Source: Patescibacteria group bacterium
GTDB taxonomy: Bacteria; Patescibacteriota; JABMPQ01; JAQVVF01
Reading direction: 5' to 3'
Assembly: GCA_041662665.1 (NCBI GenBank)
Contig: JBAZSC010000003.1
Coordinates: 4,603-68,602, forward strand
Length of the DNA: 64,000 nt
Every line of letters begins with the position of its first letter. Positions within the stretch are counted from its first letter, which is position 1. This document shows, piece by piece, positions 19,839-43,557 of this stretch. The notes below the pieces were generated by a model. The model searched no databases. It worked only from the letters and a program-made list of their open reading frames with translations, and was not told the DNA's origin. Made by a program: the position numbers and the translations under genes.

Positions 19839-19890
19839 TGTCTATTTTTTTTGGGAATGCTATATTAGAAGTGAAGTTAATTATAATTTT

Positions 19891-25708: not shown

Positions 25709-25728
25709 TAATTATATTAACAAAGCCC

Positions 25729-25768
25729 CTCTTGTATTTATTTGGGGCTTTTTGTTTTTTTGATAAAA
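25729..25768 (+). terminator. Rho-independent terminator
   Basis: aaagcccctcttgtatttatttggggcttttt plus a T run. Confidence 0.6.
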
Positions 25769-25886
25769 GTTTGTTATAATATGGCGTAGAAGCGGATTAA
25801 ACGCTGATACTAACGCTGATTCGAACGCTGAAATGAGAATTTGAGATGTAGATCTTTAATTGTTGATAATTTTTATATTTTTTTTA

Positions 25887-26624
25887 ATGATCATGAAACT
25901 TTCAGTAGTAATTCCGGCATACAATGAAGAAAAAAGAATAACAAAAACTTTAGAATCAGTTAATGAATATCTGACAAAACAGGATTTTGATTATGAGATT
26001 TTAGTTGTTGCTAATAATTGTACAGATAATACTGATAAAGTTGTTTTGGATTTGAAAAATAAAATCAAAAATTTAGAATTAATGGATATAGGCGCTGGAA
26101 TACCTGGGAAAGGTGGAGCAGTAAAAGTTGGTTTTTTGAAGGCACAAGGCGAGTACATTATGTTTATGGATGCGGATAATGCAACAAAAATTAATGAATT
26201 AGATCATTTTTGGAATTATTTTGATGAAGGTTATGATATTGTAATTGGTTCGCGTGATACTAAAGGATCAAAAGTTGTTGTTTCTCAAGCTTGGTACAAA
26301 GAATTAGCTGGAAAAATAGGTAATTTATTAATTCAAATTGTGGCCTTACCTGGAATTCATGATACTCAATGTGGATTTAAAATTTTTAAACAAAAAGTTG
26401 TAAAAGACGTTTTTCCAATACAAAAATTAGGTGGATGGGGATTTGATATTGAAATTTTAGCTTTAGCAAAGAAATTTGGTTATAAAATAAAAGAAGAACC
26501 TATTACTTGGTTTAATGCTGTTGGTAGTAAAGTAAGTATGGGTGATTATCTACATGTTTTTTCTGATTTATTTAAAGTTAGGTGGTGGTTGTGGACTGGA
26601 GTTTATAAAGTTAAAAAGTTATAA
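25887..26624 (+). CDS. Family 2 glycosyltransferase, polyprenyl-phosphate sugar synthase-like (DPM1/GtrB/ArnC type)
   Basis: VVIPAYNEE N-terminus, DAD motif (FMDADN), and QCGFK near the C-terminus, as in GT2 Dpm1-like enzymes. Confidence 0.85.
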   Translation: MIMKLSVVIPAYNEEKRITKTLESVNEYLTKQDFDYEILVVANNCTDNTDKVVLDLKNKIKNLELMDIGAGIPGKGGAVKVGFLKAQGEYIMFMDADNATKINELDHFWNYFDEGYDIVIGSRDTKGSKVVVSQAWYKELAGKIGNLLIQIVALPGIHDTQCGFKIFKQKVVKDVFPIQKLGGWGFDIEILALAKKFGYKIKEEPITWFNAVGSKVSMGDYLHVFSDLFKVRWWLWTGVYKVKKL

Positions 26625-26642
26625 AGTTCATAAAGTATTGCT

Positions 26643-27107
26643 ATGTTTCAAAGTTTTTCGCTGATGATTAAGGCGATTCTTATATCAATAGTTGGTGATA
26701 TTAAGATCGTTGTTCCTTTTTTTGCAGCACAAGGACAAATAGCTTGGTGGCAAGTATTATTCGCTTCTGTACTTGGTAATTCTATTTCTGCGATATTTTT
26801 GTTGACATTATTAGTTTTGCTGTCTGATTTTTTGAGACGTAAATTTTCTTTTTGGGATAAATTCTTTACAAACCTTTTTGAAAAAACAAAATTAAAACAT
26901 AAGAAAAATTTTGAAAAATGGGGCGTGTTAGCAGTTCTTTTAGCTGCAGCAATTCCTTTGCCTGGTTTTGGTGGATGGACTGCTGCTATTGTTTCATTTG
27001 TTTTTGGAATTAAATTTAAAAAAGCGGTATTGTTTATTATTTTAGGAATATTTTTGGAAGCTGTTATTATGACTCTTTTGAGTTTTGGGATTAAGAATAT
27101 ATTCTAG
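26643..27107 (+). CDS. Small 4-TM membrane protein, possibly of the small multidrug export-like (COG2426) family
   Basis: IPLPGFGGWTAAIVSFVFGIKFKKA resembles the P.PGTG.WTG motif of that family. Adjacent to the GT2 gene. Confidence 0.4.
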   Translation: MFQSFSLMIKAILISIVGDIKIVVPFFAAQGQIAWWQVLFASVLGNSISAIFLLTLLVLLSDFLRRKFSFWDKFFTNLFEKTKLKHKKNFEKWGVLAVLLAAAIPLPGFGGWTAAIVSFVFGIKFKKAVLFIILGIFLEAVIMTLLSFGIKNIF

Positions 27108-27225
27108 GTTTTGTGTGTTTAGATGTTTGTTAAGTTTAATTAGATTTTATTGTTTTAATAAGTTTTAACGCGGAAAAACGCAGAACTTAACGCGGAAAAT
27201 GCGGAATCGTAATAAATAATAATAT

Positions 27226-27987
27226 ATGCGAAATAAATTAATAGTTGGTAATTGGAAAATGAATTTGACTTTGGAGGAAGCTCGAAGGCTGACTTTGGAT
27301 ATTCGTCAAGGATTAACAAATTTGAGCGAAAAAGTTGAAGTTGCAGTTTGTCCATCATTTGTTCATTTAGCTAACGTTCATTATCAATTGCCATCAAGTA
27401 TAAAATTAGGATCGCAAAATGTTTTTTGGAAAAGTAATGGAGCATATACTGGCGAGATTTCTTGCGATCAACTTTTAGATTTGGGTTGTTCATATGTTAT
27501 TGTTGGTCATTCTGAAAGAAGAAAAAATTTAAGAGAAACTGATGATATGGTTAATGACAAAGTTTTAGAATGCATGCAAAAAGGATTAAAACCAATTATT
27601 TGTGTTGGTGAAACAAATGACGAAAAAGAAAAAAATATGACAGAAGAAAAAGTGACTCAACAAGTTGAATTAGCATTAGAAGGTGTGAAAAGCAAAGATG
27701 TTATAAATATTACAATTGCATATGAACCGATTTGGGCGATTGGTAATTCTAATCCAGCAGAGCCATCTGATGCACAAGCTGTAATTTCAAGAATAAGAGA
27801 TATCTTGAAAAATAATTATTCAGAAAAAGAATCAGAAATGATAAAAATTTTGTATGGAGGAAGTGTGAATCCACAAAATATTGCATCTTTTGTTTTGGAA
27901 AAAGATATTGATGGTGCTTTGGTTGGAGGAGCAAGTATCAAAGCAAATGAATTTGTGGGTATAGTCAAGCAAGTTTTAAAAATATAA
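27226..27987 (+). CDS. tpiA: Triosephosphate isomerase
   Basis: LIVGNWKMN, HSERR, AYEPIWAIG, GGSV motifs. Confidence 0.94.
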   Translation: MRNKLIVGNWKMNLTLEEARRLTLDIRQGLTNLSEKVEVAVCPSFVHLANVHYQLPSSIKLGSQNVFWKSNGAYTGEISCDQLLDLGCSYVIVGHSERRKNLRETDDMVNDKVLECMQKGLKPIICVGETNDEKEKNMTEEKVTQQVELALEGVKSKDVINITIAYEPIWAIGNSNPAEPSDAQAVISRIRDILKNNYSEKESEMIKILYGGSVNPQNIASFVLEKDIDGALVGGASIKANEFVGIVKQVLKI

Positions 27988-27998
27988 TAACTAATAAC

Positions 27999-28108
27999 CA
28001 AATCCCAAATTCCAAACAAATCCCAAATTACAAATTACAAAAATGACGATAGCTTGTAATTTGTGTTTTGTGGATTGTAATTTGTTTGGAATTTGGAGTT
28101 TGTAATTT
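27999..28108. repeat. Palindromic intergenic element, family B (caaatcccaaattccaaacaaat...acaaattacaaa / ttgtaatttgt...tttggaatttgg)
   Basis: Long imperfect inverted repeat between tpiA and fba. Copies at 38306-38428 and 59791-59900. Confidence 0.65.
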
Positions 28109-28110
28109 TT

Positions 28111-28950
28111 ATGTTAATTTCATCTCAGATCTTATTAAAAAAAGCCCAACAAGAGCATTATGCTGTTGGTGCTTTTAATACTTCAGATTTAGAAATTACA
28201 AAAGGAATTGTGAGCGCTTCTGAAGAGATGAATTCGCCAATTATTTTACAAACTTCTGAGGGAGAAATTGTGCATTCTGGCAAAGATATTTTTTTTAATG
28301 CAATGAAAATTTTTGCAGAAAAATCTAAAACTCCAATTAATTTAAATTTAGATCATGGAAAAAGTTTTGAAATGTGCAAATGGGCAGTTGATATTGGCTA
28401 TAATTCTGTAATGATTGATGGTTCAAAATTATCTTTAGACGAAAATATTAAATTAACAAAACAAGTAGTCGATTATGCTCATGAAAGAAGCGTTGTTGTT
28501 GAAGGCGAAATTGGTCTTGTGCCAACACCTGATAAAGGCGAAGAAGTAAAAATCTTAAAAGCTGATCCAAATGAATGTAAAAAATTTGTTGAAGAAACTG
28601 GTTTGGATTTTTTGGCTGTTGGGATTGGCAACGTGCATGGTGAGAACAAAGGAAAGCCAATTTTGGATTTTGAAAGATTAAGTGAAATTTGTAAAGTTGT
28701 TAGTATTCCTTTGGTTTTACATGGTGGTTCAGGAATTTCTGATTTGGATATTAAAAAAGCAATAAGTATGGGAATTTGTAAAATTAATGTTAATACTGAA
28801 CTCCGGCAAGCATTTGTAAAATCTTTGCGTGAATCTTTGGAAGATGAGGACGTGATCAAGCCTTATGATATTATGGAGCCAGTGGAAGATGTGATCAAAA
28901 AGGTTGTTGAGAAGAAGATCGAGATTTTTGGATCTAAAAATAAGATATAA
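28111..28950 (+). CDS. fba: Class II fructose-bisphosphate aldolase
   Basis: LLKKAQQEHYAVGAFN..., LDHG, VEGEIG, LHGGSG class II aldolase motifs. Confidence 0.88.
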   Translation: MLISSQILLKKAQQEHYAVGAFNTSDLEITKGIVSASEEMNSPIILQTSEGEIVHSGKDIFFNAMKIFAEKSKTPINLNLDHGKSFEMCKWAVDIGYNSVMIDGSKLSLDENIKLTKQVVDYAHERSVVVEGEIGLVPTPDKGEEVKILKADPNECKKFVEETGLDFLAVGIGNVHGENKGKPILDFERLSEICKVVSIPLVLHGGSGISDLDIKKAISMGICKINVNTELRQAFVKSLRESLEDEDVIKPYDIMEPVEDVIKKVVEKKIEIFGSKNKI

Positions 28951-28971
28951 AATTGCTCAAATAAAGTTAGT

Positions 28972-29976
28972 ATGTCTAAAACAAAATTTTTAGAATTAAT
29001 CAATTTTTTACAAAAAAACCATAAAGTTTATGGGCCTGTTTTGGATCTGGCAAGCAGATTATTAGTTCGCGAAATAAAAAATCCAGAAGATTTGGTTTTG
29101 AATGGCAGATTGACGCATTATTCTTTTAAAAATTTCTTTTTACCAGCTTGTGAATCTTTGTTTGATTATGATCATCAAAAATTAAAAGAGACAAATTATA
29201 GTTATAAAAAACAAGCAATTGTTGGAATGACAATATCTGATTTAAAAGCATTAGAATTGTATGATCAGGTTTTTGCTAAAGATCCATATTATCAAGAAAG
29301 AAGAAGACAGACTCTGGTGATTGGATATGGTTTGGCGGGCGAAAAAAGTTATTCAGAAGAATTAATTTATGAACAAAAATTTGAGGAAGATATATTAGAA
29401 CATGTTAAATTTGATGTCTTTCTCGAATTAGAATCTAATACGACTAATAAAATCTCTAATGACTTTTGTCACGTTTTTGCTGGATCTGTTGAAGGACAGA
29501 AAGTTTTGGATGGTTTTGGATATAAAGATTATAAAAATATAAAATATGTTGGGCCTATTAAGGAGAACGGTTTAGATAAGACAATGGTCGCTGTTTTTAA
29601 CAAGATGAAAAAGGGTTATGCAAAAAAGATTTGGGAAGATATTGGAAAAAGATGTATAGAATGCGGACAATGCACTTTGGTTTGTCCGACTTGCTATTGT
29701 TTCAGAATTGATGACGAACCAAGTTTAGATAAAGGTAAAGGTAAAAGAATAAGATGTTGGGATGCATGCATGTATCATGAATTTTCAGAAATTTCTGGTA
29801 AGACTAGATTATTGAAAAATACTGAACAGAGAATGTGGTTTTGGTTTTATCATAAATTTGTGAGAATCCCATTCAAATATAAAATACCAGGATGCGTGAA
29901 ATGTGGGCGATGTTCAAGAGTTTGTCCGGTCGATATTGATTTTATGAAGGTTTTGCAGGATGTATTAAAGAGTTAA
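28972..29976 (+). CDS. [NiFe] hydrogenase group 3b-type (sulfhydrogenase-like) beta subunit, 4Fe-4S dicluster protein
   Basis: Two ferredoxin-type motifs CIECGQCTLVCP and CVKCGRCSRVCP. Sits upstream of the FAD/NAD and small/large subunit genes. Confidence 0.7.
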   Translation: MSKTKFLELINFLQKNHKVYGPVLDLASRLLVREIKNPEDLVLNGRLTHYSFKNFFLPACESLFDYDHQKLKETNYSYKKQAIVGMTISDLKALELYDQVFAKDPYYQERRRQTLVIGYGLAGEKSYSEELIYEQKFEEDILEHVKFDVFLELESNTTNKISNDFCHVFAGSVEGQKVLDGFGYKDYKNIKYVGPIKENGLDKTMVAVFNKMKKGYAKKIWEDIGKRCIECGQCTLVCPTCYCFRIDDEPSLDKGKGKRIRCWDACMYHEFSEISGKTRLLKNTEQRMWFWFYHKFVRIPFKYKIPGCVKCGRCSRVCPVDIDFMKVLQDVLKS

Positions 29977-30076
29977 TCGTTGATTTATAAAATGCTTGTA
30001 ACCACAAAGGCACAGAAAATTTTAAGACACAAAAAATGTTAAATTTATTTAGTGTCTTCGTAGATTTTGTGTTTTA

Positions 30077-30943
30077 GTGGTTGCAATGGTTATATCAATT
30101 ATGCTAAATTCGTATAAAACAAAACTTGTAATTATAAAAAGAGTAATTAAAGAATCTTCTGATGTAAAAAGATTTGTTTTAGAATTTGAAAATAAAGTCG
30201 ATCAAGAAAATTTTGATTTTATTCCAGGACAATTTATTAAAGTCTCAGTTCCTGGATTATGCGATGCGCCGTTTACTTTTGGAACAAGCCCAAAAAACAA
30301 AGAAAATTTTGAAATTGCTGTACGAGGAGTCGGAAATTTAACTAATTTTTTGAATCGAATGCAAGTTGGTCAGAAATTAGGAATTAGAGGGCCGTATGGG
30401 AATGGATTTCCAATGGATATAATTAAAAAAAGAAATGTTTTGATTGTTTCTGGAGGTTGCGGATTTGTGCCTTTTAAATCAATTATTGAAGATTATTTAA
30501 TAGATAAAAAAAATTATCAAAGTAAATTCCAGATTTTTTATGGAGCAAGATCTTTTGATGATTTATTATTTAGAGATGATTTTGAAAAATGGGAAAATAA
30601 TGAAATTGAATTGAAATTAATGGTTGACAAGGGAGGCGATGCGATGTGCAAGGATTCGAAGTATAAATGCAATGTTGGTTTAGTGACAGATTTGATTAAA
30701 AATGAAAAATTGGTAGAAAAGCCAGTCGTTTTAGTATGTGGTCCACCAATTATGGTTAAGTTTGTGGTTATGGAATTAGATAAATTATCTATTCCTCATT
30801 CTGATATTTTTGTTTCGTTAGAGCGAAGAATGGAATGCGGAGTTGGAATTTGCGAGCATTGTGCAATCGGTCCTTATTATGTTTGTAAAGATGGACCAGT
30901 GTTTAGTTGGGATAAAATTGAATGGATTCCGGGAGTCGTGTAA
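30077..30943 (+). CDS. Hydrogenase gamma-like subunit: FAD/NAD(P)-binding oxidoreductase with C-terminal 2Fe-2S site (PyrK/HydG-like)
   Basis: Flavin reductase-like fold, with a C-terminal Cys cluster ECGVGICEHCAIG as in PyrK-type electron transfer subunits. Confidence 0.72.
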   Translation: MVAMVISIMLNSYKTKLVIIKRVIKESSDVKRFVLEFENKVDQENFDFIPGQFIKVSVPGLCDAPFTFGTSPKNKENFEIAVRGVGNLTNFLNRMQVGQKLGIRGPYGNGFPMDIIKKRNVLIVSGGCGFVPFKSIIEDYLIDKKNYQSKFQIFYGARSFDDLLFRDDFEKWENNEIELKLMVDKGGDAMCKDSKYKCNVGLVTDLIKNEKLVEKPVVLVCGPPIMVKFVVMELDKLSIPHSDIFVSLERRMECGVGICEHCAIGPYYVCKDGPVFSWDKIEWIPGVV

Positions 30944-31031
30944 AATTAGTAAAATTTATAAAATTAATAAAGCGAGTAATATTTATAAATTCGAAAATTA
31001 AGAAATTGAATATTATTTTAAATTTTTTAGC

Positions 31032-31247
31032 ATGTGCTTAGCGATTCCTGGAAAAATTGTTGATATAAATAAGGATGGATATTTGATTGATTATGAATCA
31101 AAGAAAGTTCAGGTTGCCAATTCTTTAATAAATAATGTAAAATTAGGTGATTGGGTAATTGTGCAAAATAGGTTTATAATTAATAGATTAGATATTCAAG
31201 ATAATGATTTGTTCTTTTCAAATCTCAAAGTAAAGGAGGAAAAGTGA
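31032..31247 (+). CDS. hypC: Hydrogenase maturation factor HypC/HybG family
   Basis: N-terminal MCLAIPGKIV (the HypC MC(L/I)(A/G)(I/V)P signature); 71 aa. Confidence 0.85.
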   Translation: MCLAIPGKIVDINKDGYLIDYESKKVQVANSLINNVKLGDWVIVQNRFIINRLDIQDNDLFFSNLKVKEEK

Positions 31248-31918
31248 TGAGCAGTAAAGAAGGATTGATTGAAGCAGCAAGATTTTCTTGGAATTGTCAG
31301 CCAGATAATAAAATGCTTTGTGATGGATTATATGGTTTTGTTCGTGGTAATGGCGGACATGATGTTGAATGGATTGAAAGGCAATTAAAGAATCTATATT
31401 CATATTTTTATTATCTTTTGATTGCAAGGCAGAATGGTATTTCTGATCCTTTTGATTTGAATGTTGTGCAGGCGCATTGGATTGGCAATGATTTGTTGAG
31501 AATTGTTAAACCTGAAGATGTAAAAAAATTACAGGCTACAGGAGAACTTAAGGCTTTGCCAAAAGAAAAAGAAATGATGATTTTATGGTTGCTGAATAAT
31601 CTAGTAAAATCAGGATCTTGTCCTCATCATAGTTTTCATGCAACTGTAAATGAAAAATTGAATCCAGATTTAATTCGTCAAGGAAAAAGATGTTTTGTTG
31701 AATGTGGCAAGGTAATAGAATTAGAAGATAATTATTTTATTGTTGATATTGATGGAAATACAAGAAAGTGTGGTTATGGTTTTTTGAAAGGTAAGATTCA
31801 AGTTGGCAATTTGGTTTTAATCCATTTGAATGAAGGTCGAAGGATTGCAGATTTGTATGAAAAAATGAGATTGGACGATTGGTCTGCTATCACAATGAGT
31901 TCTTTAAAATTGATTTAA
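31244..31918 (+). CDS. Hypothetical protein with a HypC-like OB-fold at its C-terminus; translationally coupled to hypC by an ATGA overlap
   Basis: C-terminal ...ECGKVIELEDNYFIVDIDGNTRKCGYGFLKGKIQVGNLVLIHLNEG parallels the HypC core (G.V..I......A.VDfgG..r.v....v...vGDyVLVHvG) but lacks the N-terminal Met-Cys. N-terminal 130 aa is novel and Cys/His-bearing. Confidence 0.4.
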   Translation: MMSSKEGLIEAARFSWNCQPDNKMLCDGLYGFVRGNGGHDVEWIERQLKNLYSYFYYLLIARQNGISDPFDLNVVQAHWIGNDLLRIVKPEDVKKLQATGELKALPKEKEMMILWLLNNLVKSGSCPHHSFHATVNEKLNPDLIRQGKRCFVECGKVIELEDNYFIVDIDGNTRKCGYGFLKGKIQVGNLVLIHLNEGRRIADLYEKMRLDDWSAITMSSLKLI

Positions 31919-31999
31919 TTCAGATTTCTGATCTTTAATCTTTCGATTAGAGATTTTTTACCTGCATTAAATATTTTGCGAAAATATTTTTAAATAAAA

Positions 32000-32794
32000 A
32001 TGGAACAACAAAAATTAAAAGTAGCGATGGTTTCTTTAACTTCCTGTGAAGGATGCTATTTTAGTTTGCTTGATTTGGGAAATGAATTTTTGGAAATCGC
32101 AGATAAAATTGATTTAGTTAAATTTAGATTACTTAAGGAAGACCCGCCTTCGCTCCTAGCGAATTCGGAGCTTCGGCGGGCAAAGGAAAAATATGATATA
32201 ACTTTTGTTGAAGGAAGTCCGATTTCAGAAGATAATTTTGATAAATTAATTGATTTAAGATTAAGGACGAAAAAAATGATAGTTTTGGGAGGATGTGCTC
32301 ATACTGGTGGAACGTATGCAATGCGAAATCATACAGACAAGAAAAAAGCCTGCAAATATGTTTATCCAAAAACGAATAAAAAAATTTTTAATCCTAATAT
32401 TTTAGAATTATCAAAAGTTGTACATATCGATGGGATTATTCCAACTTGTCCAGTTAATCCAAGAGAATTCGTAAGATTTATGTCTTTTGTTTTGAATAGT
32501 TTGACTTTTAAAATTACTGAGAGGCCAGTTTGTTATGAATGTCAGTTAGCGCAAACTTCTTGTTTATTAAAAATGGGATTGCCATGTTTTGGACCAATGG
32601 CTTTGGGTGGTTGCGATGCTCCTTGTCCTAGAGCAGGTATGCCATGCCAATTATGTCGTGGGCCAATGAAAGAAATACAATGGGATAATTTTGAAAAGAA
32701 AATGAAAGATATTATGGGAGCAAAAGTTTGGGAAAAAGATTATAATGAAATATTGGAAATTTTTAATGTTAAAGACAAGATAAGTGTTGAATAA
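32000..32794 (+). CDS. [NiFe] hydrogenase small (delta) subunit
   Basis: VAMVSLTSCEGCYFSLLD N-terminal proximal-cluster motif, plus C-terminal Cys motifs (CPVNP, CYEC, CDAPC, CQLC). Carries an in-frame GC-rich repeat insertion at 32143-32186. Confidence 0.82.
   Translation: MEQQKLKVAMVSLTSCEGCYFSLLDLGNEFLEIADKIDLVKFRLLKEDPPSLLANSELRRAKEKYDITFVEGSPISEDNFDKLIDLRLRTKKMIVLGGCAHTGGTYAMRNHTDKKKACKYVYPKTNKKIFNPNILELSKVVHIDGIIPTCPVNPREFVRFMSFVLNSLTFKITERPVCYECQLAQTSCLLKMGLPCFGPMALGGCDAPCPRAGMPCQLCRGPMKEIQWDNFEKKMKDIMGAKVWEKDYNEILEIFNVKDKISVE
32143..32186. repeat. GC-rich hairpin repeat, copy c, inserted in-frame within the hydrogenase small-subunit CDS
   Basis: cccgccttcgctcctagcgaattcggagcttcggcgggcaaagg, encoding DPPSLLANSELRRAKE. 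Same family as the 1571, 57534 and 62075 copies. Confidence 0.65.
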
Positions 32795-32903
32795 GTTAGA
32801 CTAGTTAGATTAGTTAGATTTGTTTCGGAAATTATGATATTCGGAAATTAACTACCCAACTTTTAGTTGGGGTTCGTCAAACTTTAGTTTGAAGTCGTAG
32901 ATA

Positions 32904-33269
32904 TTGGATATTAAGATATTAGAAATTAAATATTTTTTTATGGAAATAAAACAAGAAATTAAAAAATCAGAGGCCGTTAAAATTTTTGCTGAAAAAAATG
33001 GTGAGATTGTTGGAAGAGCATATTTATATTTGATAAAAAATGATTTGCATACAGAGCCTTATGGATTATTGGAAGATGTTTTTGTTTCGGAAAATCAAAG
33101 AGGAAAAGGTACAGGTACAAAATTAGTTCAAGCTGTAATTGAAGAAGCGAAAAAAAGAAAGTGTTATAAATTAATTGCAACAAGTAGAAAATCAAGAGAA
33201 CAAGTGCATCAATGGTATTTAAAATTAGGTTTTGAAGATTATGGATGTGAATTTAGAATAAATTTTTAA
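32904..33269 (+). CDS. GNAT family N-acetyltransferase
   Basis: QRGKGTGTKLVQAV acetyl-CoA-binding motif; about 110 aa. The start may be the internal ATG at 32940. Confidence 0.75.
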   Translation: MDIKILEIKYFFMEIKQEIKKSEAVKIFAEKNGEIVGRAYLYLIKNDLHTEPYGLLEDVFVSENQRGKGTGTKLVQAVIEEAKKRKCYKLIATSRKSREQVHQWYLKLGFEDYGCEFRINF

Positions 33270-33282
33270 TTTGTACTATTTT

Positions 33283-33392
33283 TGCCAAAAATTATTTTTC
33301 TTCAGTCTGCGGAACTCGCCTCGTTTCACTCGGCTCAGACAATCCTCGACTTCAGAAAAAAAATTTTTGGCAAAATAAATTTTTAATTTATT
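33283..33392. repeat. Palindromic element immediately upstream of the hydrogenase large-subunit gene
   Basis: Arms tttttgccaaaaatt / aatttttggcaaaa flank a GC-richer core cttcagtctgcggaactcgcctcgtttcactcggctcagacaatcctcgacttcag. Confidence 0.5.
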
Positions 33393-34700
33393 ATGTCAAA
33401 GAAAATAATAAAAATAAATCATCTAGCAAAAATGGAAGGGCATGCATCTTTTGAAGGTAGGATTTTGGCTGGAGAAATTTCAGAAGCGCATATTATTACA
33501 GAAGAAGGTGCAAGATTGATTGAAGGAACTTTAATTGGCAGACATTATTCTGAAGCGCCGACAATTACTTCTAGAATTTGCGGAATTTGTCCAATTGTTC
33601 ATCATCTAACTGCAGTTAAAGCTTTAGAGGAATGTTTTGAAGTTAAAGTTAGTTCTGAAGTTGTAATGTTACGCAAAATTTTGGAATTGGCGCAAATTAT
33701 TCATAGTCATGCTTTACATCTTTTCTTTTTGTCATTGCCGGACTTTTTGAATTATGATGATACAAAAAAAATGGCAGGCAGATATCCAAATGAAGCACAG
33801 ATGGCAATTGATATTCGAAAATGGGCAACTGATTTATGTTTGGCGATTGGAGGCAGAATTACTCATCCATTAACAAATATGGTTGGCGGATTTAGAAGAT
33901 GGCCAGAAGAAGAAAAATTAGAAAATTTCTTGGATGGATCTGGTGATATTTTAGAAATGGCATTGAAAATTGCTCAATTATTTAGAGATTTGGATTATCC
34001 AAAATTTGATAACTTGGGAAATTTTATTGCATTATCAAATGATAATGAATATGCAATATATGATGGTGAAGTTAAAGTTTGGGAAACAAAGAAAAATTTA
34101 GCTAAAAAAATATTTGGTAAAGAAATGAAAAATTACGAGGCTGTAAAATTTATAAAATTAATAAAAGAAGTTGAATTGCAAAACGAGATGGTTAAGCGAG
34201 TTAAATTTAAAAGAAAGCCATTTTTCTGCGGAGCATTAGCCCGAATAAATATTAATAAATATTTATTGAATGAAGAGGCATCAAAATTTTTGGAAACAAC
34301 AAATATTGATTTTCCTTCTAGCAACACTTTCTATAATGTTTTAGCACAGGCTGTTGAATTAATTCATTGTATTGAAGAAATTAGAAATTTATTACGAGAG
34401 CTAAAGAAAATAAATTGGTTGAATGCAAAAAATGCAAGTTTTAAAATAAAAGCAGGAAAAGGTGTTGGAGCAATTGAAGCTCCAAGAGGCACTTTGTATC
34501 ATTATTATGAAACTGATAAAGATGGATATATTAAAAATTGCAATATAATTACACCAACTGCTCAATTTTTAGCAAAGTTAGAAGATGATTTGGGTGTATT
34601 TCTTGGAGATATTAAAAATTTAACAGATCTGGAAAGAAGAAATAAAATAAAAATGATGATTAGAGCGTTTGATCCATGTATTTCTTGTGCGACACATTAA
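33393..34700 (+). CDS. [NiFe] hydrogenase large (alpha) subunit
   Basis: N-terminal RICGICPIVHH (RxCGxCxxxH) and C-terminal DPCISCATH (DPCxxCxxH) Ni-Fe ligand motifs; 435 aa. Confidence 0.9.
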   Translation: MSKKIIKINHLAKMEGHASFEGRILAGEISEAHIITEEGARLIEGTLIGRHYSEAPTITSRICGICPIVHHLTAVKALEECFEVKVSSEVVMLRKILELAQIIHSHALHLFFLSLPDFLNYDDTKKMAGRYPNEAQMAIDIRKWATDLCLAIGGRITHPLTNMVGGFRRWPEEEKLENFLDGSGDILEMALKIAQLFRDLDYPKFDNLGNFIALSNDNEYAIYDGEVKVWETKKNLAKKIFGKEMKNYEAVKFIKLIKEVELQNEMVKRVKFKRKPFFCGALARININKYLLNEEASKFLETTNIDFPSSNTFYNVLAQAVELIHCIEEIRNLLRELKKINWLNAKNASFKIKAGKGVGAIEAPRGTLYHYYETDKDGYIKNCNIITPTAQFLAKLEDDLGVFLGDIKNLTDLERRNKIKMMIRAFDPCISCATH

Positions 34701-34714
34701 TTAAATTAAAAAAT

Positions 34715-35047
34715 ATGAATAAAAATAAAAAAAATATTAGTACAGAAGGAAAAGAAATTTTAAGATTGCGTGATCTTTATAACTATTTACAAAAGCATCC
34801 AACTGACAAAGAAAATTTTTATAGCAGGATTCAGAATATGAAAAAAAAGTTAGACATTTTGGAGAAAAAGTTGAATGTTAAAGGTAAGATAATTATTTCA
34901 AAAAAAGAAAATAAGTCTTTAGAAGCAGCAATCAAAGCAGTTAAAAATAAAGGATTTGTTGATAATAAAAAAGAATTTGCTAAATTTTTGTATAATTGGC
35001 AATTATTTTTAGAGATGGAAAATAGAGTGAATAGTTTGGATAAGTAA
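34715..35047 (+). CDS. Hypothetical lysine-rich small protein
   Basis: ORF only. Confidence 0.35.
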   Translation: MNKNKKNISTEGKEILRLRDLYNYLQKHPTDKENFYSRIQNMKKKLDILEKKLNVKGKIIISKKENKSLEAAIKAVKNKGFVDNKKEFAKFLYNWQLFLEMENRVNSLDK

Positions 35048-35053
35048 AATATT

Positions 35054-35530
35054 TTGATTTTAAATAATATGAAAAAAGTTAGGGTAAAAAATAAGAAAAA
35101 TATTGGAATTGAAAAATTAGCTAAAGAAATGAGAGCTGGTTTTAAAGAAATGCATAAAGAGATGAATGCTAGTTTTAAGGAAATGCATGCTGGTTTTAAA
35201 GAAATGCATGCTAATTTTAAAGAGGTAGATAAAAGATTCTATGAGCTTTATGATTTTTTGCAAAAGCACATGGTGACTAAGGAAGAGCTTAATAATATTT
35301 TGAGTAATTATGCAACGAAGAAAGATTTACAGGAAGTTAAAAATGAGTTGATGAATACAATGGATAAAATTGTTGGTGATTATAATACTGATAAACAAGA
35401 GCATGTAACTTTTATTTTGCATTTAGACCGATTGGCAGAAATGGAAATTAAAATTGGCAAAATGGATAAAGAGATTAAAACAATTAAAAATATAATTTTT
35501 AAAGATGCACGATTTTCATGCAGCAGATAA
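35054..35530 (+). CDS. Hypothetical coiled-coil protein with tandem FKEMH repeats
   Basis: RAGFKEMHKEMNASFKEMHAGFKEMHANFKEV internal repeats. Confidence 0.4.
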   Translation: MILNNMKKVRVKNKKNIGIEKLAKEMRAGFKEMHKEMNASFKEMHAGFKEMHANFKEVDKRFYELYDFLQKHMVTKEELNNILSNYATKKDLQEVKNELMNTMDKIVGDYNTDKQEHVTFILHLDRLAEMEIKIGKMDKEIKTIKNIIFKDARFSCSR

Positions 35531-35762
35531 TATTTTAAAAACTGCTATAGAATATGCCAAAGAAAATAAGTTAAAAAAAGTTGATAAAATTAAGATTGAA
35601 TTAGGAAAATTTATTGAACATGGGCAAGAAATTTTGGCTGATAATTTAGAATTTAATATAAAAATGTTAGCAAAAGGGACGATTGCAGAAAATTGTGAAA
35701 TTGTTATTATAGAAAAACGAGGAGAAAATGGATATAGATTAGATGAAATTGAAGGAGAATAA
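35505..35762 (+). CDS. HypA-like (hydrogenase nickel insertion) N-terminal domain protein lacking the C-terminal zinc finger
   Basis: MHDFHAADNILKTAIEYAKENKLKKVDKIKIELGKF... follows the HypA N-domain pattern (MHE, IxIxxG, EILxxxxEF) but ends at 85 aa without CxxC...CxxC. Confidence 0.4.
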   Translation: MHDFHAADNILKTAIEYAKENKLKKVDKIKIELGKFIEHGQEILADNLEFNIKMLAKGTIAENCEIVIIEKRGENGYRLDEIEGE

Positions 35763-35807
35763 AATATTCGGATATTATGATATTACGGATATTAGATATT
35801 TAATTTT

Positions 35808-37025
35808 ATGAACAAAAAAACGATCAAAGATATTGATGTTAAAAATAAAATTGTTTTAGTGAGGGATGATTTTAATGTGCCAATTAAGGATAGAAAAATT
35901 TTGGATGATTTTAAGATTAGAAAAAGTCTTGATACGATTAATTATTTGATTAAACAAAATGCAAAAATTGTTTTAATGTCACATTTAGGAAAACCGAAAG
36001 GAAAGATAGTTGAGAATTTACGATTAAAACCGGTTGCTGAATGTCTAGCTGCAATGATGAATAAGAGAATTGTAACCACAAAAACACAAAAAACTGGTGA
36101 AGACTCAAAAAATGGTGTGATTTATTATTGTGATGATTGCATAGGCAATATTGTAAAGAAAACTATTAATGATGCAGATTTTGGCGATATTATTTTGTTG
36201 GAGAATGTTAGATTTTATCCAGAAGAAGAAAAAAATGATGTAGAATTTGCTAAAAAACTGGCGAGTTTAGGTGAGATATTTTGCGAAGATGGATTCGGAT
36301 CAGTACATCGGGGCCACGCCTCTGTTTCAGGAATTGCTAAATTTTTACCCGCTGTTGCTGGATTATTGCTGGAAAGAGAAGTCGATGTTTTGACAGAAGT
36401 TTTAGAAAAACCAGAACATCCATATCTAGTTATTTTAGGCGGAGCAAAAATTTCAACAAAATTAAATTTGATAAATAAATTAGCTAAACAAGCAGACAAG
36501 CTGTTGGTTGCTGGTGCTTTATCAAATACTATTTTTATGGCGAATGGCTTAAATGTTGGCGGTTCTCTTGTTGAAAAAGAAATGATTGATCAGATTAAAA
36601 CAACTGTTTTGAAAAATAATAATATTGATATACCAATTGATGTTGTAGTTGGAAAAGAAAATGGTGATAATGCGAGAATTGTTGATGTTGGAAATGGTAT
36701 AAGTAATGATGAATTTATTTATGATATTGGTCCAAAGACTATTGAATTGTTTAAAAGAAAAATTGATAAATCTAGTTTGGTTGTTTGGAATGGACCAATG
36801 GGAAAATTTGAAAATGAAAGATACGCAAAAGGAACATTTGAATTAGCAAAAGAATTAGTGAAGGTTAAAAAAGCTGTTGTTGGTGGAGGCGAGACTTCAA
36901 TGGCAATCAGAGAGTTAGGATTAGAAGATAAAATTTATCATTTATCAACTGGAGGTGGTGCTATGTTGGAATTTTTGGAAGGAAAAGAGATGCCAGGAAT
37001 AGAATGCTTGCAAGTTAAAAGTTAA
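35808..37025 (+). CDS. pgk: Phosphoglycerate kinase
   Basis: 405 aa PGK pattern (VLVRDDFNVP, ...GGGA...). Confidence 0.92.
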   Translation: MNKKTIKDIDVKNKIVLVRDDFNVPIKDRKILDDFKIRKSLDTINYLIKQNAKIVLMSHLGKPKGKIVENLRLKPVAECLAAMMNKRIVTTKTQKTGEDSKNGVIYYCDDCIGNIVKKTINDADFGDIILLENVRFYPEEEKNDVEFAKKLASLGEIFCEDGFGSVHRGHASVSGIAKFLPAVAGLLLEREVDVLTEVLEKPEHPYLVILGGAKISTKLNLINKLAKQADKLLVAGALSNTIFMANGLNVGGSLVEKEMIDQIKTTVLKNNNIDIPIDVVVGKENGDNARIVDVGNGISNDEFIYDIGPKTIELFKRKIDKSSLVVWNGPMGKFENERYAKGTFELAKELVKVKKAVVGGGETSMAIRELGLEDKIYHLSTGGGAMLEFLEGKEMPGIECLQVKS

Positions 37026-37058
37026 TAAAGTTTTTAAAGTATAAAGTAATAAATTTAT

Positions 37059-38300
37059 ATGAAGATAAACAAAATTAGAGCAAGAGAAATCCTTGATTCA
37101 AGAGGAGAGCCAACTGTAGAAGTGAAGGTCGATCTTGATGATGGAAAATTTGGAATAGCAAAAGTTCCTTCTGGTGCTTCAACAGGCGAGCATGAGGCTT
37201 TGGAATTAAGGGATAATGACAAAAAAAGATATGGAGGCAAAGGAGTAATGAGGGCATGTAAAAATGTTAATGATATTATTTCGGAAAGATTAGTTGGAAT
37301 GGATGTTTTTAAGCAAGAAAAAATCGATCGAACTTTGATAGCATTGGATGGAACTCCAAATAAATCAAAGTTAGGAGCAAACGCAATTCTTGGAGTGTCG
37401 TTGGCTTGTTGTGTTGCAGCAGCTAATTCTAAAGAAATAGAATTATATCAATATATTGGTGAAATTTTTGGGAATAATAATTTTGTTTTACCACAAGCAT
37501 ATTTTAATATCATTAATGGTGGAAAGCATGCTGATTCTGGATTGGATGTCCAAGAATTCATGATTGTGCCAAAAGCAATTAATTTTTTTGAAAAAGTAAG
37601 AGTTGGATCTGAAGTTTTTCATGCTTTGAAAGATATTTTGCAAAGAAGAGAATATTCAGTTGGTGTTGGAGATGAAGGTGGCTTTGCACCAAAATTAGAT
37701 AGCAATGAAGATGCGATTGAAACAATTTTGAGAGCAATTGAAGAAGCAGGATATAAACCAGGTGCTGATGTTAATATTGCATTGGATGTTGCTGCATCTT
37801 CTTTTTATAATAAAGAAAAAGGATATTGTTTGAATTCTGGTAAATGCATTGAGTCAGATCATTTAATAGCAATGTTTTCGGATTGGATTAGCAAATATCC
37901 AATAAAAATGATTGAAGATTTATTGGCTGAAGATGATTGGGAAGGTTGGAAGAAAGCTACAGAAAAATTAGGCGATAAAGTTCAAATTGTCGGCGATGAT
38001 TTATTTGTAACGAATATAGAAAGAGTGAAAAAAGGAATAAAAGAAAATTGCGCAAATTCTGTTTTGATAAAGCTAAATCAAATTGGAACTTTGACAGAAA
38101 CTTTTGAATGCATAAAATTAGCAAAATCAAAAGGATATGCAACAATGATTTCACATCGATCTGGTGAAACAATTGATACTTTTATTGCTGATCTTTGTGT
38201 TGGTACAAATTCCGCACAAATTAAATCTGGATCATTATCTCGTGGTGAAAGAGTATGCAAATATAATAGGTTGATGGAGATAGAGGAATTGTTGAAATAA
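37059..38300 (+). CDS. eno: Enolase
   Basis: [22 protein letters not shown]..., SHRSGETED-like, IKLNQIGT motifs. Confidence 0.95.
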
Positions 38301-38305
38301 TTAAA

Positions 38306-38428
38306 AATTACAAATCTCAAATTCCAAACAAAATCCAAATTACAAATTACAAAGTCGACGGTTTGTTTTTTGTGTTTTGTATATTGTAATTTGTTTGGGA
38401 TTTGGAATTTGTGATTTGGGATTTAATG
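38306..38428. repeat. Palindromic intergenic element, family B, between eno and gpmI
   Basis: caaatctcaaattccaaacaaaatccaaattacaaattacaaa ... ttgtaatttgtttgggatttggaatttgtgatttggg. Confidence 0.65.
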
Positions 38429-38437
38429 CAAAAACTA

Positions 38438-40017
38438 TGAATTACAAACAAGCAGTATTAATTATCCTAGATGGCTTTGGTATTGCGCCTCCAGGAAAAG
38501 GAAATTGTGCGACATTGGCGAAAATGCCATATTATAATTCTTTATTACAGAATTATACTCATACAGTAATAAAAGCTTCTGGCGAGGAAGTTGGTTTGCC
38601 TTGGGGTGATGTTGGAAATTCTGAAGTTGGACATGGTAATTTGGGAGCTGGCAGGATTTCTTATCAAAGCTTGCCATTAATAAATACAGCAATTTTAAAT
38701 AAATCCTTTTTTAAAAACGAAGCTTTGATGGGAGCAATTCATCATGTCAAGAAAAATAAAAGTTCGTTGCATATTATGGGATTGATTAGTGCTGGCGGAG
38801 TTCATTCACATATTGAGCATTTATTTGCTTTATTAAAATTAGCTAAGCAAAATAGAATCAAAAAAGTCTATATTCATTGTTTTATGGATGGACGAGATAT
38901 GCCAAAAGATTCTGGTTTAGATGCCGTAAAAAAAATTCAAAAAGAAACAAGCGGATTTTTTTCAGTAGGAAAAATTGCGACATTATCTGGTAGATTTTTT
39001 GCAATGGATCGAGATAATAATTGGGATAGAATTGAAAAGTCTTACAATACTATGACTGGAAATTGGAGCGTCGGAACGTCGGAACCAAAATTTTTTGCTG
39101 ATCCAATTAATGCCGTAGAGGATTCTTATGCTAATAAAATTTATGATGAGCAAATGGAGCCAATTGTAATTGGGACAAAGGAAAAACCAGTAGCAAAAAT
39201 TTCAAAAGGAGATGCTGTGATATTTTTTAATTTTAGAGCTGATCGAGCAAGACAGATGACCGAAGCTTTTGTCAGTGATAATTTTAAAGGTTTTAAGCGA
39301 GAAAAAATTGAGGATTTATTTTTCGTTTGTTTTACTGAATACGAAAAAGGATTATGTAAGAACATTGCATTTATGCAAAAAGAAACTCCAAATGGCTTGT
39401 CAGAAACCATTAGCAAGAATAATTTAAAACAATTTCATACAGCTGAAACAGAAAAATTTGCTCATGTAACTTTTTTCTTTAACTCTGGACGTGAAAAACC
39501 TTTTGCAGGCGAGGTACATAAAGTTGTTCCTTCTCCAAAAGTAAAATCTTATGACGAAAAACCAGAAATGTCGGCAGAAGGTGTGACAGTTGAAGCTATA
39601 AAAGCAATAAAAGAAAAATATAATTTTGTTTTGATAAATTTTGCAAATCCAGATATGGTTGGACATACTGGCAATATTATGGCAACAATAAAAGGATTAG
39701 AGCTTGTTGATACTTGTTTGAAAAAAATTATTCCAGAAGTTTTAAATAATAATGGAGTTGTTGTTTTAACAGCTGATCATGGAAATTGCGAGGAAAAAAT
39801 AAATTTGCAAAATGGTAGAATAGAAAAAGAGCATACTGCAAATCCAGTACCTTTGGTTTTGATTGGAAAAGGATTGGAGCGAAAGTCAGATAATATTGAT
39901 TTGAGTATTGAATCTTCAACTGGAGCGTTGGCTGATGTGGCGCCGACAATACTTTCTTTGCTTGGTTTAAAAAAGCCGGAAGAGATGACGGGATTGGATT
40001 TGACGAAAGTGATTTAG
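38438..40017 (+). CDS. gpmI: 2,3-bisphosphoglycerate-independent phosphoglycerate mutase
   Basis: iPGM motifs (ILDGFG, SEVGHGN, GRDxP, ADHGN). Start set at the internal ATG, because the longer ORF overlaps the family B repeat. Confidence 0.9.
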
Positions 40018-40169
40018 ATATTCGGAAATTCGGATATTAAGAAATTAGAAATTGGAAATTATTATTTAATTTAGTTCAGATATAAATTTCGTGGTAGCCT
40101 AAAATTAAAAAGTATAAATTACTTTCGAAAATAGATTCGAAAACATTAGAAAATTAATTTGAGTATTAT

Positions 40170-40736
40170 ATGAAAATAAAAATAGAAGTAAGTGCAAGGC
40201 ATATTCATTTGAGCCAAGAACATTTGGATCAACTTTTTGGAAAGGATTATAAATTAACAAAAAAACAAGGATTATCGCAAGAAGGTGAATTTGCTTGTGA
40301 AGAAACTTTGAAAGTTGTTGGACCAAAATTAGAAATTGATCATGTTAGAATAATCGGGCCAGTTAGACCAAGAACACAAATCGAAGTTTCAAAAACTGAT
40401 GGTTTTATGTTAGGCAATATTCCTCCATTAAGAATTTCTGGAGATGTAGTTGGATCAGCGCCAGTGAAATTAGTTGGGCCTAAGGGTTTTGTTGATTTAT
40501 TAGAAGGAATGATTATTGCAATGAGACATATTCATATATCGGAAGAACAGGCAGAAGGTTTAAAATTGAAGGATGGTCAAAGAGTTTCTATTTCTTGTTT
40601 TGGTGATAGAGGTCTGTTATTTAATAATGTTGTTGTTAGAGTTAATCCGAAATTTGATTTTTATTTACAGCTTGATACTGATGAGGCAAATGCTGCTGGT
40701 GTGGAAAATGGAGATGTCGGGGAATTGATTATTTAA
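40170..40736 (+). CDS. pduL: PduL-type phosphate acetyl/propionyltransferase (phosphotransacylase)
   Basis: Two tandem PduL repeats, each with a RHIH motif (SARHIHLS and AMRHIHIS). Confidence 0.8.
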   Translation: MKIKIEVSARHIHLSQEHLDQLFGKDYKLTKKQGLSQEGEFACEETLKVVGPKLEIDHVRIIGPVRPRTQIEVSKTDGFMLGNIPPLRISGDVVGSAPVKLVGPKGFVDLLEGMIIAMRHIHISEEQAEGLKLKDGQRVSISCFGDRGLLFNNVVVRVNPKFDFYLQLDTDEANAAGVENGDVGELII

Positions 40737-40744
40737 TTTCTACC

Positions 40745-40845
40745 CAGCTTTAGCTGGGGTATGTGCAACTTTAGTTGCAGTAGAAGTTTGATGAAAAAAT
40801 AAAGTTTTTCGAACCACAACTAAAGTTGGGTAGATGCTTAATAAA
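40745..40845. repeat. Tandem hairpin element (acccagctttagctggggt, gcaactttagttgc, caactaaagttggg)
   Basis: Hairpins built around a CTTTAG core. Related pair at 32838-32900 (acccaacttttagttggggt, caaactttagtttg). Confidence 0.5.
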
Positions 40846-40850
40846 TTTTT

Positions 40851-41549
40851 ATGCACGAACAAATTGGCGAAATAAGTCAAAAAGATATTATGGAATCAGG
40901 TGTTGAAAAAACTCCAGGTTTAGAAATTGCAAAAACCGAAGAATCAGAAGAAGCTGTAAAATTGTTAGACGAAATTGCAGGAGATATTGAGAATGATCTA
41001 AATATAAAAGCTGAAAGAATGATAATGCTTAGAGAAGCTTTGGGAAAATTGCGATTTAATTTTGGAGCGGAAGGCGAGACAATGACAGCTGAAGAATTAA
41101 AAAAAGTTCCTGATATGAAAGAAAATGTTGAGATTTATGAAGCTATGAAACGAGATTTTCATCTTGGTCGGGCAACACGAATTGATGAAGTTACTTATCT
41201 TACTCCAGGAATGGCAGAAGAAATAATCTTTGTTTATGATCCTGATGAAACTATGTCATTAATGAGTTTAAAAGTAATGACTGATAAACTAGCTGAAGTT
41301 TTGGGTAATGCAGAAGAAGTTAACATAAGGTTACCAAAATTAAATATTTTAACTGGAAAACAGTTGCGAAGTCTTTTGGCAAAAACTAATACTGTTAGTT
41401 TGCGGGGTTTGGATACCGTGCAGGTTGATGGAGATTTAGCGATAACTATAGACCAATGTGCTGGAAGAATTGTTATGGATGACAAGCAAATTGATAGGTT
41501 AAAAGAACTTTTTCCGAAGTTCGAATTTCGTAGAATTATGGGGCATTAA
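40851..41549 (+). CDS. Unknown-family protein, paralog 1 of a tandem pair
   Basis: 232 aa. Shared N-terminal motif (EISQKDIMESGxEKTPGLExAKT) and C-terminus (ELFPxxxFRxxMGH) with the gene at 41612. Confidence 0.6.
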   Translation: MHEQIGEISQKDIMESGVEKTPGLEIAKTEESEEAVKLLDEIAGDIENDLNIKAERMIMLREALGKLRFNFGAEGETMTAEELKKVPDMKENVEIYEAMKRDFHLGRATRIDEVTYLTPGMAEEIIFVYDPDETMSLMSLKVMTDKLAEVLGNAEEVNIRLPKLNILTGKQLRSLLAKTNTVSLRGLDTVQVDGDLAITIDQCAGRIVMDDKQIDRLKELFPKFEFRRIMGH

Positions 41550-41611
41550 TTAATAGACTGAAATTATATAACCTTTAGGTTAAAGCCAAGTAGAAATATT
41601 AAACATTTTTT

Positions 41612-42310: not shown

Positions 42311-42323
42311 TTAAAGTTTTATT

Positions 42324-43400: not shown

Positions 43401-43450
43401 GGTCGCTTTTAACTTCTAAGCAAATTCAAAGAACAAAAATATAAATATAC

Positions 43451-43550
43451 GAAGAGGCTCAGCCTTTTATTTAAATTGTTGGTTTGTGTTTTTAATAAAG
43501 TTGATTTTAAATGTAATTGCTTAGTTTTTTTAATAAAAGGCTGAGCCTCT
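43451..43550. repeat. Long-range inverted repeat directly upstream of recJ
   Basis: aagaggctcagccttttatttaaa ... ttaataaaaggctgagcctctt (about 19-bp stem, about 55-nt loop). Confidence 0.5.
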
Positions 43551-43557
43551 TAAGATT

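Follow-up and report, generated by a model that had tools for sequence, protein, structure and literature searches.

A [NiFe] hydrogenase among glycolytic genes

The window analysed here is a 64,000-nt stretch of contig JBAZSC010000003.1 from a Patescibacteria group bacterium, and our subject is the gene cluster at positions 27226-40017 of its + strand, which encodes a [NiFe] hydrogenase and accessory proteins in the midst of glycolytic genes. Open reading frames (ORFs) were called and their products identified with Pfam and NCBIfam. The genes run in the order tpiA, fba, beta, gamma, hypC, DUF6390, delta, GNAT, alpha, two small ORFs, HypA, pgk, eno and gpmI, and downstream of gpmI follow a pduL-type phosphotransacylase gene, two genes for 232-aa paralogues, ackA and recJ. 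G+C content of the window is ~31%, every gene lies on the + strand, and a ribosomal-protein operon is located upstream, as is usual for Patescibacteria. An earlier reading made from the sequence alone (the sequence-only reading) had named the genes from tpiA to gpmI and their order, and both agreed with the ORF calls and family identities.

The large subunit, alpha (33393-34700, 435 aa), is a NiFeSe_Hases protein carrying the metal-binding motifs RICGICPIVH and DPCISCATH, the latter followed directly by the stop codon; the motif columns are invariant across 15 aligned homologues. Its best NCBIfam matches were to ShyA (244 bits) and HydA (217 bits), both of group 3b, ahead of VhuA (168, group 3c) and FrhA (124, group 3a), and its best PDB matches were to Pyrococcus furiosus SHI alpha (194 bits) and Thermococcus kodakarensis HyhL (184), ahead of MvhA (172), FrhA (142) and HoxH (140), i.e., the 3b references outscored the others by a modest margin. 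Beta (28972-29976), an Fe-S protein resembling AsrA and ShyB, matched Fer4_22 (E 1e-28) and, over its full length, ShyB (110.8 bits). Gamma (30077-30943, exact start uncertain), resembling ShyC and AsrB, has the FAD, NAD(P) and 2Fe-2S domains NAD_binding_1, FAD_binding_6 and DHODB_Fe-S_bind, and matched PRK08345 with 221.9 bits and ShyC with 200.8 bits. The small subunit, delta (32000-32794, 264 aa), is an Oxidored_q6 protein that matched ShyD/HydD with ~110 bits. The presence of both the AsrA-like beta and the AsrB-like gamma completes the 3b-type tetrameric gene set; the sequence-only reading had called the enzyme 3b-type, and the alpha scores together with the ShyB- and ShyC-like subunits support that call. 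The four subunits and the metal motifs are shared with the P. furiosus sulfhydrogenases (SHI and SHII) and T. kodakarensis Hyh (PDB 9e15, 9nez, 5yxy), which gave the best sequence matches for all four window subunits.

The hydrogenase itself is already known. 3b hydrogenases are treated as common in genomes from the candidate phyla radiation (CPR; PMC5220378), and a CPR-specific ‘hyd1’ clade, related to yet distinct from 3b, was defined by Jaffe et al. (2020, BMC Biol; PMC7304191). The window enzyme belongs to this clade: its alpha is 44-93% identical to many Patescibacteria sequences, and it has a full-length small subunit. Homologues of alpha number in the thousands in the protein database, and the named ones are nearly all from Patescibacteria. 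As published for hyd1, beta and gamma are co-located and a hypC-like family lies nearby, and the window beta and gamma are likewise ‘not immediately upstream’ of the small subunit, as in some of the published cases (PMC7304191). Features not described there are DUF6390, a HypA that lacks its zinc domain, a HypC that lacks His51, the missing C-terminal extension of alpha, alternating maturation modules and the glycolytic embedding. The new content thus lies in the non-canonical accessory set and the three-way alternation of modules, the enzyme class and its presence in CPR being known.

For comparison of gene neighbourhoods, we assembled 80 Patescibacteria loci, one genome per species, via large-subunit alignment, together with loci around individual homologues; ORFs were called in each locus, covered to +/-10 kb, and clustered into families. 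Of the non-redundant loci, 52 extend at least 6 kb upstream; 50 of these have delta, 33 HypC, 25 beta/gamma, 17 a transporter of the EamA family, 16 DUF6390 and 3 the GNAT. Among the 59 with at least 5 kb downstream, HypA was present in 45, pgk in 24 and the gene for glyceraldehyde-3-phosphate dehydrogenase (GAPDH) in 25. The core delta-alpha-HypA is near-universal across the Patescibacteria loci. The three nearest relatives (alpha 89-90% identical) keep the order tpiA-fba-beta-gamma...delta-GNAT-alpha...HypA-pgk-eno-gpmI-pduL-ackA and vary between gamma and delta and 3' of alpha, and two independent assemblies agree in the gamma-hypC-DUF6390-delta segment. The arrangement is not a matter of chance, since the order recurs in close relatives and its core in dozens of distant Patescibacteria loci.

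On the upstream side of the window hydrogenase lie tpiA, for triose-phosphate isomerase (27226-27987; the orthologue in the same place in the relative L001 matches PF00121, TIM), and fba, for class II fructose-bisphosphate aldolase (28111-28950; L001 orthologue 279 aa, PF01116), the start of which is most likely ATG 28111 because the longer ORF begins within a palindromic repeat. Downstream lie pgk (35808-37025) and eno (37059-38300), identified as ORFs and by synteny in relatives, and gpmI (38437-40017), where ATG 38437 is the probable start and the longer ORF again begins within a palindromic repeat. The acetate branch follows, with the pduL-type phosphate acyltransferase (40170-40736; PTAC E 2e-69) and ackA (42324-43400; ORF and L001 synteny). 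At least one glycolytic gene was present in 40 of the 43 loci with both flanks, and in a relative with 54% identity beta is directly preceded by pyruvate:ferredoxin oxidoreductase, while pentose-phosphate genes lie downstream. Because of these two observations, embedding in central fermentation genes is a clade-wide property, and the placement remarked on in the sequence-only reading is conserved. A hydrogenase built into a glycolysis and acetate array across most Patescibacteria examined gives direct genomic support for H2 as their main redox vent.

In archaea, the structural genes of 3b hydrogenases are contiguous and the hyp genes lie elsewhere. The window departs from these archaeal operons in that accessory and unrelated genes are interleaved among the structural genes. 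This interleaving had been called atypical, which holds relative to archaeal and model-organism operons and does not hold within the CPR clade, where it is the normal layout, as partly noted before (PMC7304191).

The accessory proteins HypC, DUF6390 and HypA

The stand-alone HypC (31032-31247, 71 aa) matched PF01455 with 52 bits (cut-off 28.5; E 6.5e-14) and starts MCLAIPGK, with the Met-Cys N-terminus present. In the established pathway, HypC C2 and H51, with HypD C41, are the proposed iron ligands, exchange of which abolishes activity (PMC12134894). Relative to HypC, HybG, HupF and HoxL, the window protein shares the fold signature and Cys2 and lacks His51, with Gln in its place (WVIVQNRF; E. 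coli numbering). Cys2 is kept in every stand-alone HypC. His51 is present in 12/12 loci with hypD/hypE and in none of the ~37 loci without them, i.e., 21 with DUF6390 (the window included), 7 with a fusion of HypC to HydE (HypC::HydE, see below) and 9 without a module.

The DUF6390 gene (31247-31918) begins at ATG 31247, which overlaps the hypC stop codon (TGATG) and lies 3' of an AAGGAGG site, and is thus probably translationally coupled to hypC. Its product matched PF19927 and, below threshold, HupF_HypC over residues 155-196. An AlphaFold model built on a 70-sequence alignment (mean predicted local distance difference test score, pLDDT, 94.4) predicts a helical domain at residues 1-145, followed by a barrel of five strands (150-202) and a terminal helix. 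When the barrel was compared with the PDB by Foldseek, its sole fold matches were HypC structures (2z1c, 3vyt), with template-modelling (TM) scores of 0.74-0.90. Alignment of the HypC profile to the DUF6390 profile by hhalign gave a probability of 97.3% (E 2.5e-11) and placed E. coli HypC C2 at C150 and H51 at H194 of the window protein. Three residues, C150, H129 and H194, do not vary among the 70 family members, and conservation of C18, H128 and H132 reaches at least 90%. The N-terminal domain, modelled separately (pLDDT 90.9), had no fold match in the PDB (best E 1.8).

DUF6390 therefore resembles HypC, HybG, HupF and HoxL in the fold of its C-terminal domain and in the equivalents of Cys2 and His51, and differs from them in that the Cys is internal (residue 150 of 223-224) rather than N-terminal, and in that a 145-residue helical domain without a solved-structure match precedes the HypC-like domain. 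The sequence-only reading had recognised a ‘HypC-like fusion’ here, and the profile alignment and the HypC-only fold matches bear it out. The gene is also a conserved cluster member: it was present in 16/52 loci over several clades of the alpha tree, two more loci were found from the DUF6390 protein itself, and in L087 the EamA, DUF6390, delta and alpha genes overlap by 1-4 nt. In the protein database the family forms at least 1112 clusters, of which those bearing a name come from CPR groups, and no mention of it was found in the searched literature. Given this domain anatomy and the gene displacement described below, we infer with moderate confidence that DUF6390, in the manner of HypC, carries or scaffolds the iron half of the cofactor.

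Two other families occur in this part of the loci. Family f59 (~220-240 aa), in the hypC-delta gap of L031, L034, L042, L054 and L068, has a GxxVLVH motif like that of HypC; with an hhalign probability of 41% to DUF6390 (E 3e-4 over the N-terminal domain), it might at most be a very divergent relative. Family f71, which takes the position of DUF6390 in some loci, was rejected as a divergent DUF6390 (hhalign 5%). A hypC-EamA-DUF6390 trio was also seen at L088:8761-13630, beside an opposite-strand ‘hyd2’-type hydrogenase (small subunit 164 aa, large subunit 439 aa) next to glpX, fba and pgk.

The HypA of the window (35505-35762, 85 aa) is a miniature form. It matched PF01155 with 36.7 bits (cut-off 28.9), starts MHD, and shares with HypA the N-terminal Met-His-Asp/Glu nickel motif and the alpha/beta nickel domain. 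A zinc domain is listed as part of HypA (PMC12134894); the Patescibacteria copies differ in that 61/61, at 84-96 aa and with MHD at the start, are devoid of a CxxC motif, so that the entire zinc-finger domain, with its two CxxC motifs, appears to be missing throughout the clade. No hypB was found nearby, neither in the window nor in the first 85 loci, with a single HypB sequence motif as the query.

All 80 of the 80 non-redundant alphas end DPCxxCA[TV]H-stop. Archaeal 3b alpha chains run 4 residues beyond the final His (aligned to 424 of 428), whereas the CPR alphas stop at the His. Because alpha ends at the metal-site His motif, with nothing to cut, these alphas would need no maturation endopeptidase, and the absence of an endopeptidase gene from the 64-kb window fits the missing extension. 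The window was likewise negative for hypB, hypD, hypE and hypF by motif scans, by phmmer with Patescibacteria HypD and HypE and by Pfam on the remaining non-ribosomal ORFs, and for hydE, hydG, the HypF fragment and GAPDH by family clustering. A search for hypD/E/F/B and an endopeptidase elsewhere had been proposed in the sequence-only reading; as run, within the 64-kb window, it found none. HypC, DUF6390 and mini-HypA are clade-wide accessory genes, and the lineage thus seems to use a non-textbook variant of the maturation pathway.

Alternating maturation modules and their interpretation

Between gamma (or fba) and delta, the loci carry one of three types of module. Module A consists of hypC-hypD-hypE and an opposite-strand gene for a 387-aa protein whose match to HypF is limited to the Kae1-like C-terminal half. 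Module B is hypC-EamA-DUF6390. Module C is a HypC domain fused to the radical S-adenosylmethionine protein HydE, followed by HydG. Module C was identified in the relative L007 (L007:5309-7967), in which HypC::HydE sits between gamma and DUF6390 and scores above the HydE equivalog cut-off (280.7 vs 254.6), and the next gene above that for HydG (612.7 vs 312). Among the 52 loci, A was present in 15, B in 15, C in 7, B and C together in 1, and none in 14. Module A co-occurred with B or C in 0 of the 38 module-bearing loci (Fisher p 2e-5, uncorrected for phylogeny).

On a neighbour-joining tree the module states are interleaved, alternating among closely related alphas with 71-90% identity. For example, L033 (B) and L050 (C) have alphas that are 84% identical, L020 (B) and L067 (A) 75%, and L021 (B) and L029 (A) 76%, and the window (B without EamA) shares 90% alpha identity with L007 (C plus DUF6390). 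Such replacement of one module by another, in the same place and between close relatives, is what functional equivalence would lead one to expect, though it does not prove that the modules are equivalent.

A metagenome scan with the fusion protein yielded 80 further loci, every match starting at residue 1 of the HypC domain. HydG lay alongside in 42 of them and [NiFe] alpha/delta were in the locus in 31, the usual order being beta-gamma-HypC::HydE-HydG-delta-alpha-HypA. None held hypD/E/F, DUF6390 or an ORF with the [FeFe] H-cluster motif (HydA); HydF was not searched for. The fusion was seen in L050, L060, L061, L064, L069, L075 and L082 besides L007, and in metagenome loci L092-L171. The L007 HydE and HydG pass the equivalog cut-offs of the proteins known from [FeFe] hydrogenases, and the relatives' copies differ from those in lying within [NiFe] loci and in the fusion of HydE to HypC; the window has neither. 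The searched literature held nothing relevant on HypC-HydE fusions or on HydG/HydE in Patescibacteria. These observations suggest that, in the fusion-bearing relatives, CO/CN chemistry of the [FeFe] type has been recruited to [NiFe] maturation.

Loci of the Moranbacteria type (L024-L026, L030, L036, L062, L079 and others) have an alpha ~46% identical to that of the window and NuoE/NuoF/NuoG-like genes in place of beta/gamma. They carry hypC-hypD-hypE and the 387-aa HypF C-terminal-half protein, and GAPDH lies directly 3' of HypA.

One reading of the alternation is that in many Patescibacteria the [NiFe] site is assembled with no HypD, HypE or HypF, A, B and C being three interchangeable modules for the iron half, with DUF6390 in B serving as a single-chain HypC-type scaffold and C borrowing tyrosine-derived CO/CN chemistry from [FeFe] hydrogenase maturation. 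This is speculative, and we regard it as a tentative proposal that is rather unlikely to hold in full. If DUF6390 or HypC::HydE/HydG does replace HypD/E/F, this would bear on where the CO ligand comes from when oxygen is absent, a question counted as unresolved in the cited review, and would offer a smaller gene set for making [NiFe] hydrogenases in other hosts. Were this true, then, in combination with a HypA lacking its zinc domain and in the absence of both HypB and an endopeptidase, no [NiFe] maturation system more reduced than this one would be known.

For the region as a whole, we consider it probable that it encodes a cytoplasmic heterotetrameric (alpha-beta-gamma-delta) 3b-type ‘hyd1’ [NiFe] hydrogenase set in a same-strand fermentation array, tpiA-fba / hydrogenase / pgk-eno-gpmI-pduL-...-ackA, together with clade-wide accessory genes and lineage-specific insertions. 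By analogy with the P. furiosus and T. kodakarensis enzymes, gamma would take electrons from NAD(P)H via FAD and its 2Fe-2S cluster, and the Fe-S clusters of beta and delta would relay them to the [NiFe] site of alpha, where protons would be converted to H2. Reduced nucleotides from glycolysis would be recycled in this way while PduL and AckA make acetate and ATP, in a reaction expected to be reversible. During maturation, DUF6390 would carry or scaffold the iron-ligand half of the cofactor and mini-HypA would insert nickel, with no proteolysis step.

Several points weigh against this interpretation. All subunit scores fall far under the NCBIfam equivalog cut-offs (ShyA 244 vs 700), and alpha differs from its nearest characterised counterpart, P. 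furiosus SHI, to the extent that it matches it with only 194 bits; because of these scores, the enzyme is best taken as a distant relative of the characterised 3b hydrogenases. Some close relatives in the same alpha clade pair with NuoE/F/G-like subunits and not with beta/gamma, and therefore the clade is not uniformly ‘3b’ in architecture. The direction of H2 turnover (evolution or uptake) and the cofactor specificity are taken over by analogy. GAPDH, the presumed source of NAD(P)H, was not found in the 64-kb window, and two AT-rich hairpins, in the tpiA/fba and eno/gpmI gaps, could split the array into separate transcripts. On the side of maturation, the window lacks EamA, which accompanies DUF6390 in 12/16 loci, the absence of hypD/E/F/B refers to the 64-kb window and +/-10 kb of the other loci, and 14/52 loci are devoid of any module, so that maturation genes can be located elsewhere in a genome.

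This last point bears most directly on the possibility that maturation is ordinary, with hypD/hypE/hypF (and hypB) elsewhere in the genome and DUF6390 an extra, enzyme-specific HypC paralogue, comparable to HybG, HoxL and HupF, that aids Fe(CN)2CO delivery. We give this explanation close to an even chance. Unlinked genes are possible given the loci without a module within 6-10 kb, the search of the source genome covered the 64-kb window of a contig of ~211 kb, some Patescibacteria clearly carry hypC-hypD-hypE and the HypF fragment, and extended extra HypC paralogues are known (PMC12134894). Ordinary maturation sits less well with the distribution of His51, which the stand-alone HypC lacks exactly where hypD/hypE are missing from the locus, with the swapping of hypD/hypE, DUF6390 and HydE/HydG modules at one position among close relatives, and with the metagenome HypC::HydE loci, 0/80 of which hold hypD/E/F.

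A second alternative concerns the enzyme's function, i.e., that it is mainly a polysulfide-reducing sulfhydrogenase or an H2-uptake enzyme making NADPH rather than a fermentative H2 vent. The homology of beta and gamma to the anaerobic sulfite reductase subunits AsrA/AsrB is compatible with this, and all three roles are listed for CPR 3b enzymes (PMC7304191; PMC5220378). The conserved neighbours, however, are glycolysis, pyruvate:ferredoxin oxidoreductase and the acetate branch and not sulfur or anabolic genes, and we consider this alternative unlikely.

Still less probable is a role for DUF6390 on the nickel side, in which its Cys and His residues would bind Ni in place of HypB or SlyD and EamA would import nickel or a nickel chelate. 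It would account for the lack of hypB in the loci scanned with the single motif, for a HypA without its zinc domain everywhere, for the Cys and His nature of the conserved DUF6390 residues and for a membrane transporter co-located and translationally coupled with DUF6390. Yet DUF6390 alternates with HypD/HypE, which act on the iron-ligand side, while HypA accompanies all modules; the homologous domain is HypC, a carrier of the iron group; EamA resembles amino-acid and carboxylate transporters of the drug/metabolite transporter superfamily and not known nickel transporters; and the window holds DUF6390 without EamA. An iron-side role remains our preferred assignment for DUF6390.

Insertions and other features of the window

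The delta/alpha junction (32795-33392 in the window) is a recurrent insertion site. Delta and alpha are adjacent in only 24 of the 72 loci with delta upstream, and the other 48 hold 1-6 intervening ORFs, among them a matrixin-like membrane metalloprotease (18 loci), a PD-(D/E)XK GxxExxY protein (6 loci), unknown families and 34 singletons. The window junction contains the small GNAT acetyltransferase gene (32904-33269; probable start near 32940, ~109 aa), whose product matched Acetyltransf_1 (PF00583, E 9e-18) and has an intact acetyl-CoA motif, RGKGTG (consensus R/QxxGxG/A). It lacks the N-terminal third of the fold, aligning to residues 55-147 of 150-aa GNATs, and its best matches are generic small-molecule acetyltransferases. 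Besides the window, only L001/L006 (L002 being a duplicate) and L007 carry this gene, and their alphas are at least 89% identical to that of the window.

In the sequence-only reading the GNAT was thought possibly to acetylate a hydrogenase subunit or a partner. Although the gene keeps its place in these three closest lineages and its motif is intact, its absence from all other loci (3/52), the many unrelated genes at the same junction elsewhere and the generic, truncated fold led us to reject it as a hydrogenase partner, and a function in acetylating a subunit or regulator is highly improbable. Comparison with related genomes thus separated the two genes that had been put forward as conserved members of the cluster: the HypC-like gene is one, and the GNAT is an unrelated neighbour.

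The two small ORFs 3' of alpha are similarly restricted. The first (34676-35047, 123 aa) is unique to the window, and the second (35054-35530, 158 aa), a coiled-coil protein with 7-residue KEMHxxF repeats encoded by 21-nt tandem repeats, is common only to the window and L007; L001 has neither. Both were without a family match and without a defence-system match, and they were rejected as cluster members on account of their absence beyond the window and L007 and the lack of a family match. Since the GNAT is lineage-restricted and unrelated inserts occupy the junction in 48/72 loci, this gene and the two small ORFs are best read as incidental, lineage-specific insertions in a porous gene array. 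The interval 34001-36000, which spans both orphan ORFs, is the lowest-GC part of the window (25%). Four-helix-bundle proteins of the rRNA-intervening-sequence kind are scattered through the Patescibacteria hydrogenase loci.

A family of palindromic elements of ~100 nt, ~80% alike, is present in the window at 27999-28102 (hairpin -42 kcal/mol, z -8.2), 38305-38418 (-41.1 kcal/mol, z -6.1) and 59791-59893, with a divergent copy at ~51193-51287. Folding energies range from -41 to -43.5 kcal/mol (z -6 to -8) for the long hairpins that the copies form, each with a T-run at its end, and the copies sit between same-strand genes, i.e., tpiA/fba, eno/gpmI and DUF4012/murJ. Neither of the relatives L001 and L007 has them, and they may represent miniature mobile elements or serve to terminate or stabilise transcripts. 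Only two terminator-like sites were found on the + strand of the scanned array, at 43452-43468 (3' of ackA) and 38516-38529 (inside gpmI). As promoter- and terminator-like sites were at or below shuffled expectation, these predictions are uninformative on operon limits. No Rfam family was found in 25000-45000.

Between pduL and ackA, at 40851-42310, lie the genes for the two 232-aa paralogues, which have no family match and are common to L007; L001 has a DNA methylase and an unknown gene in their place. Further downstream, recJ (43558-45293) is represented by a pair of overlapping ORFs (371 and 210 aa), where L001 has a single 569-aa gene; the split may stem from a frameshift or an assembly error. 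Upstream, within the ribosomal-protein array, a nucleotidyltransferase/HEPN pair resembling a toxin-antitoxin system lies between secY and adk at 19813-20614.

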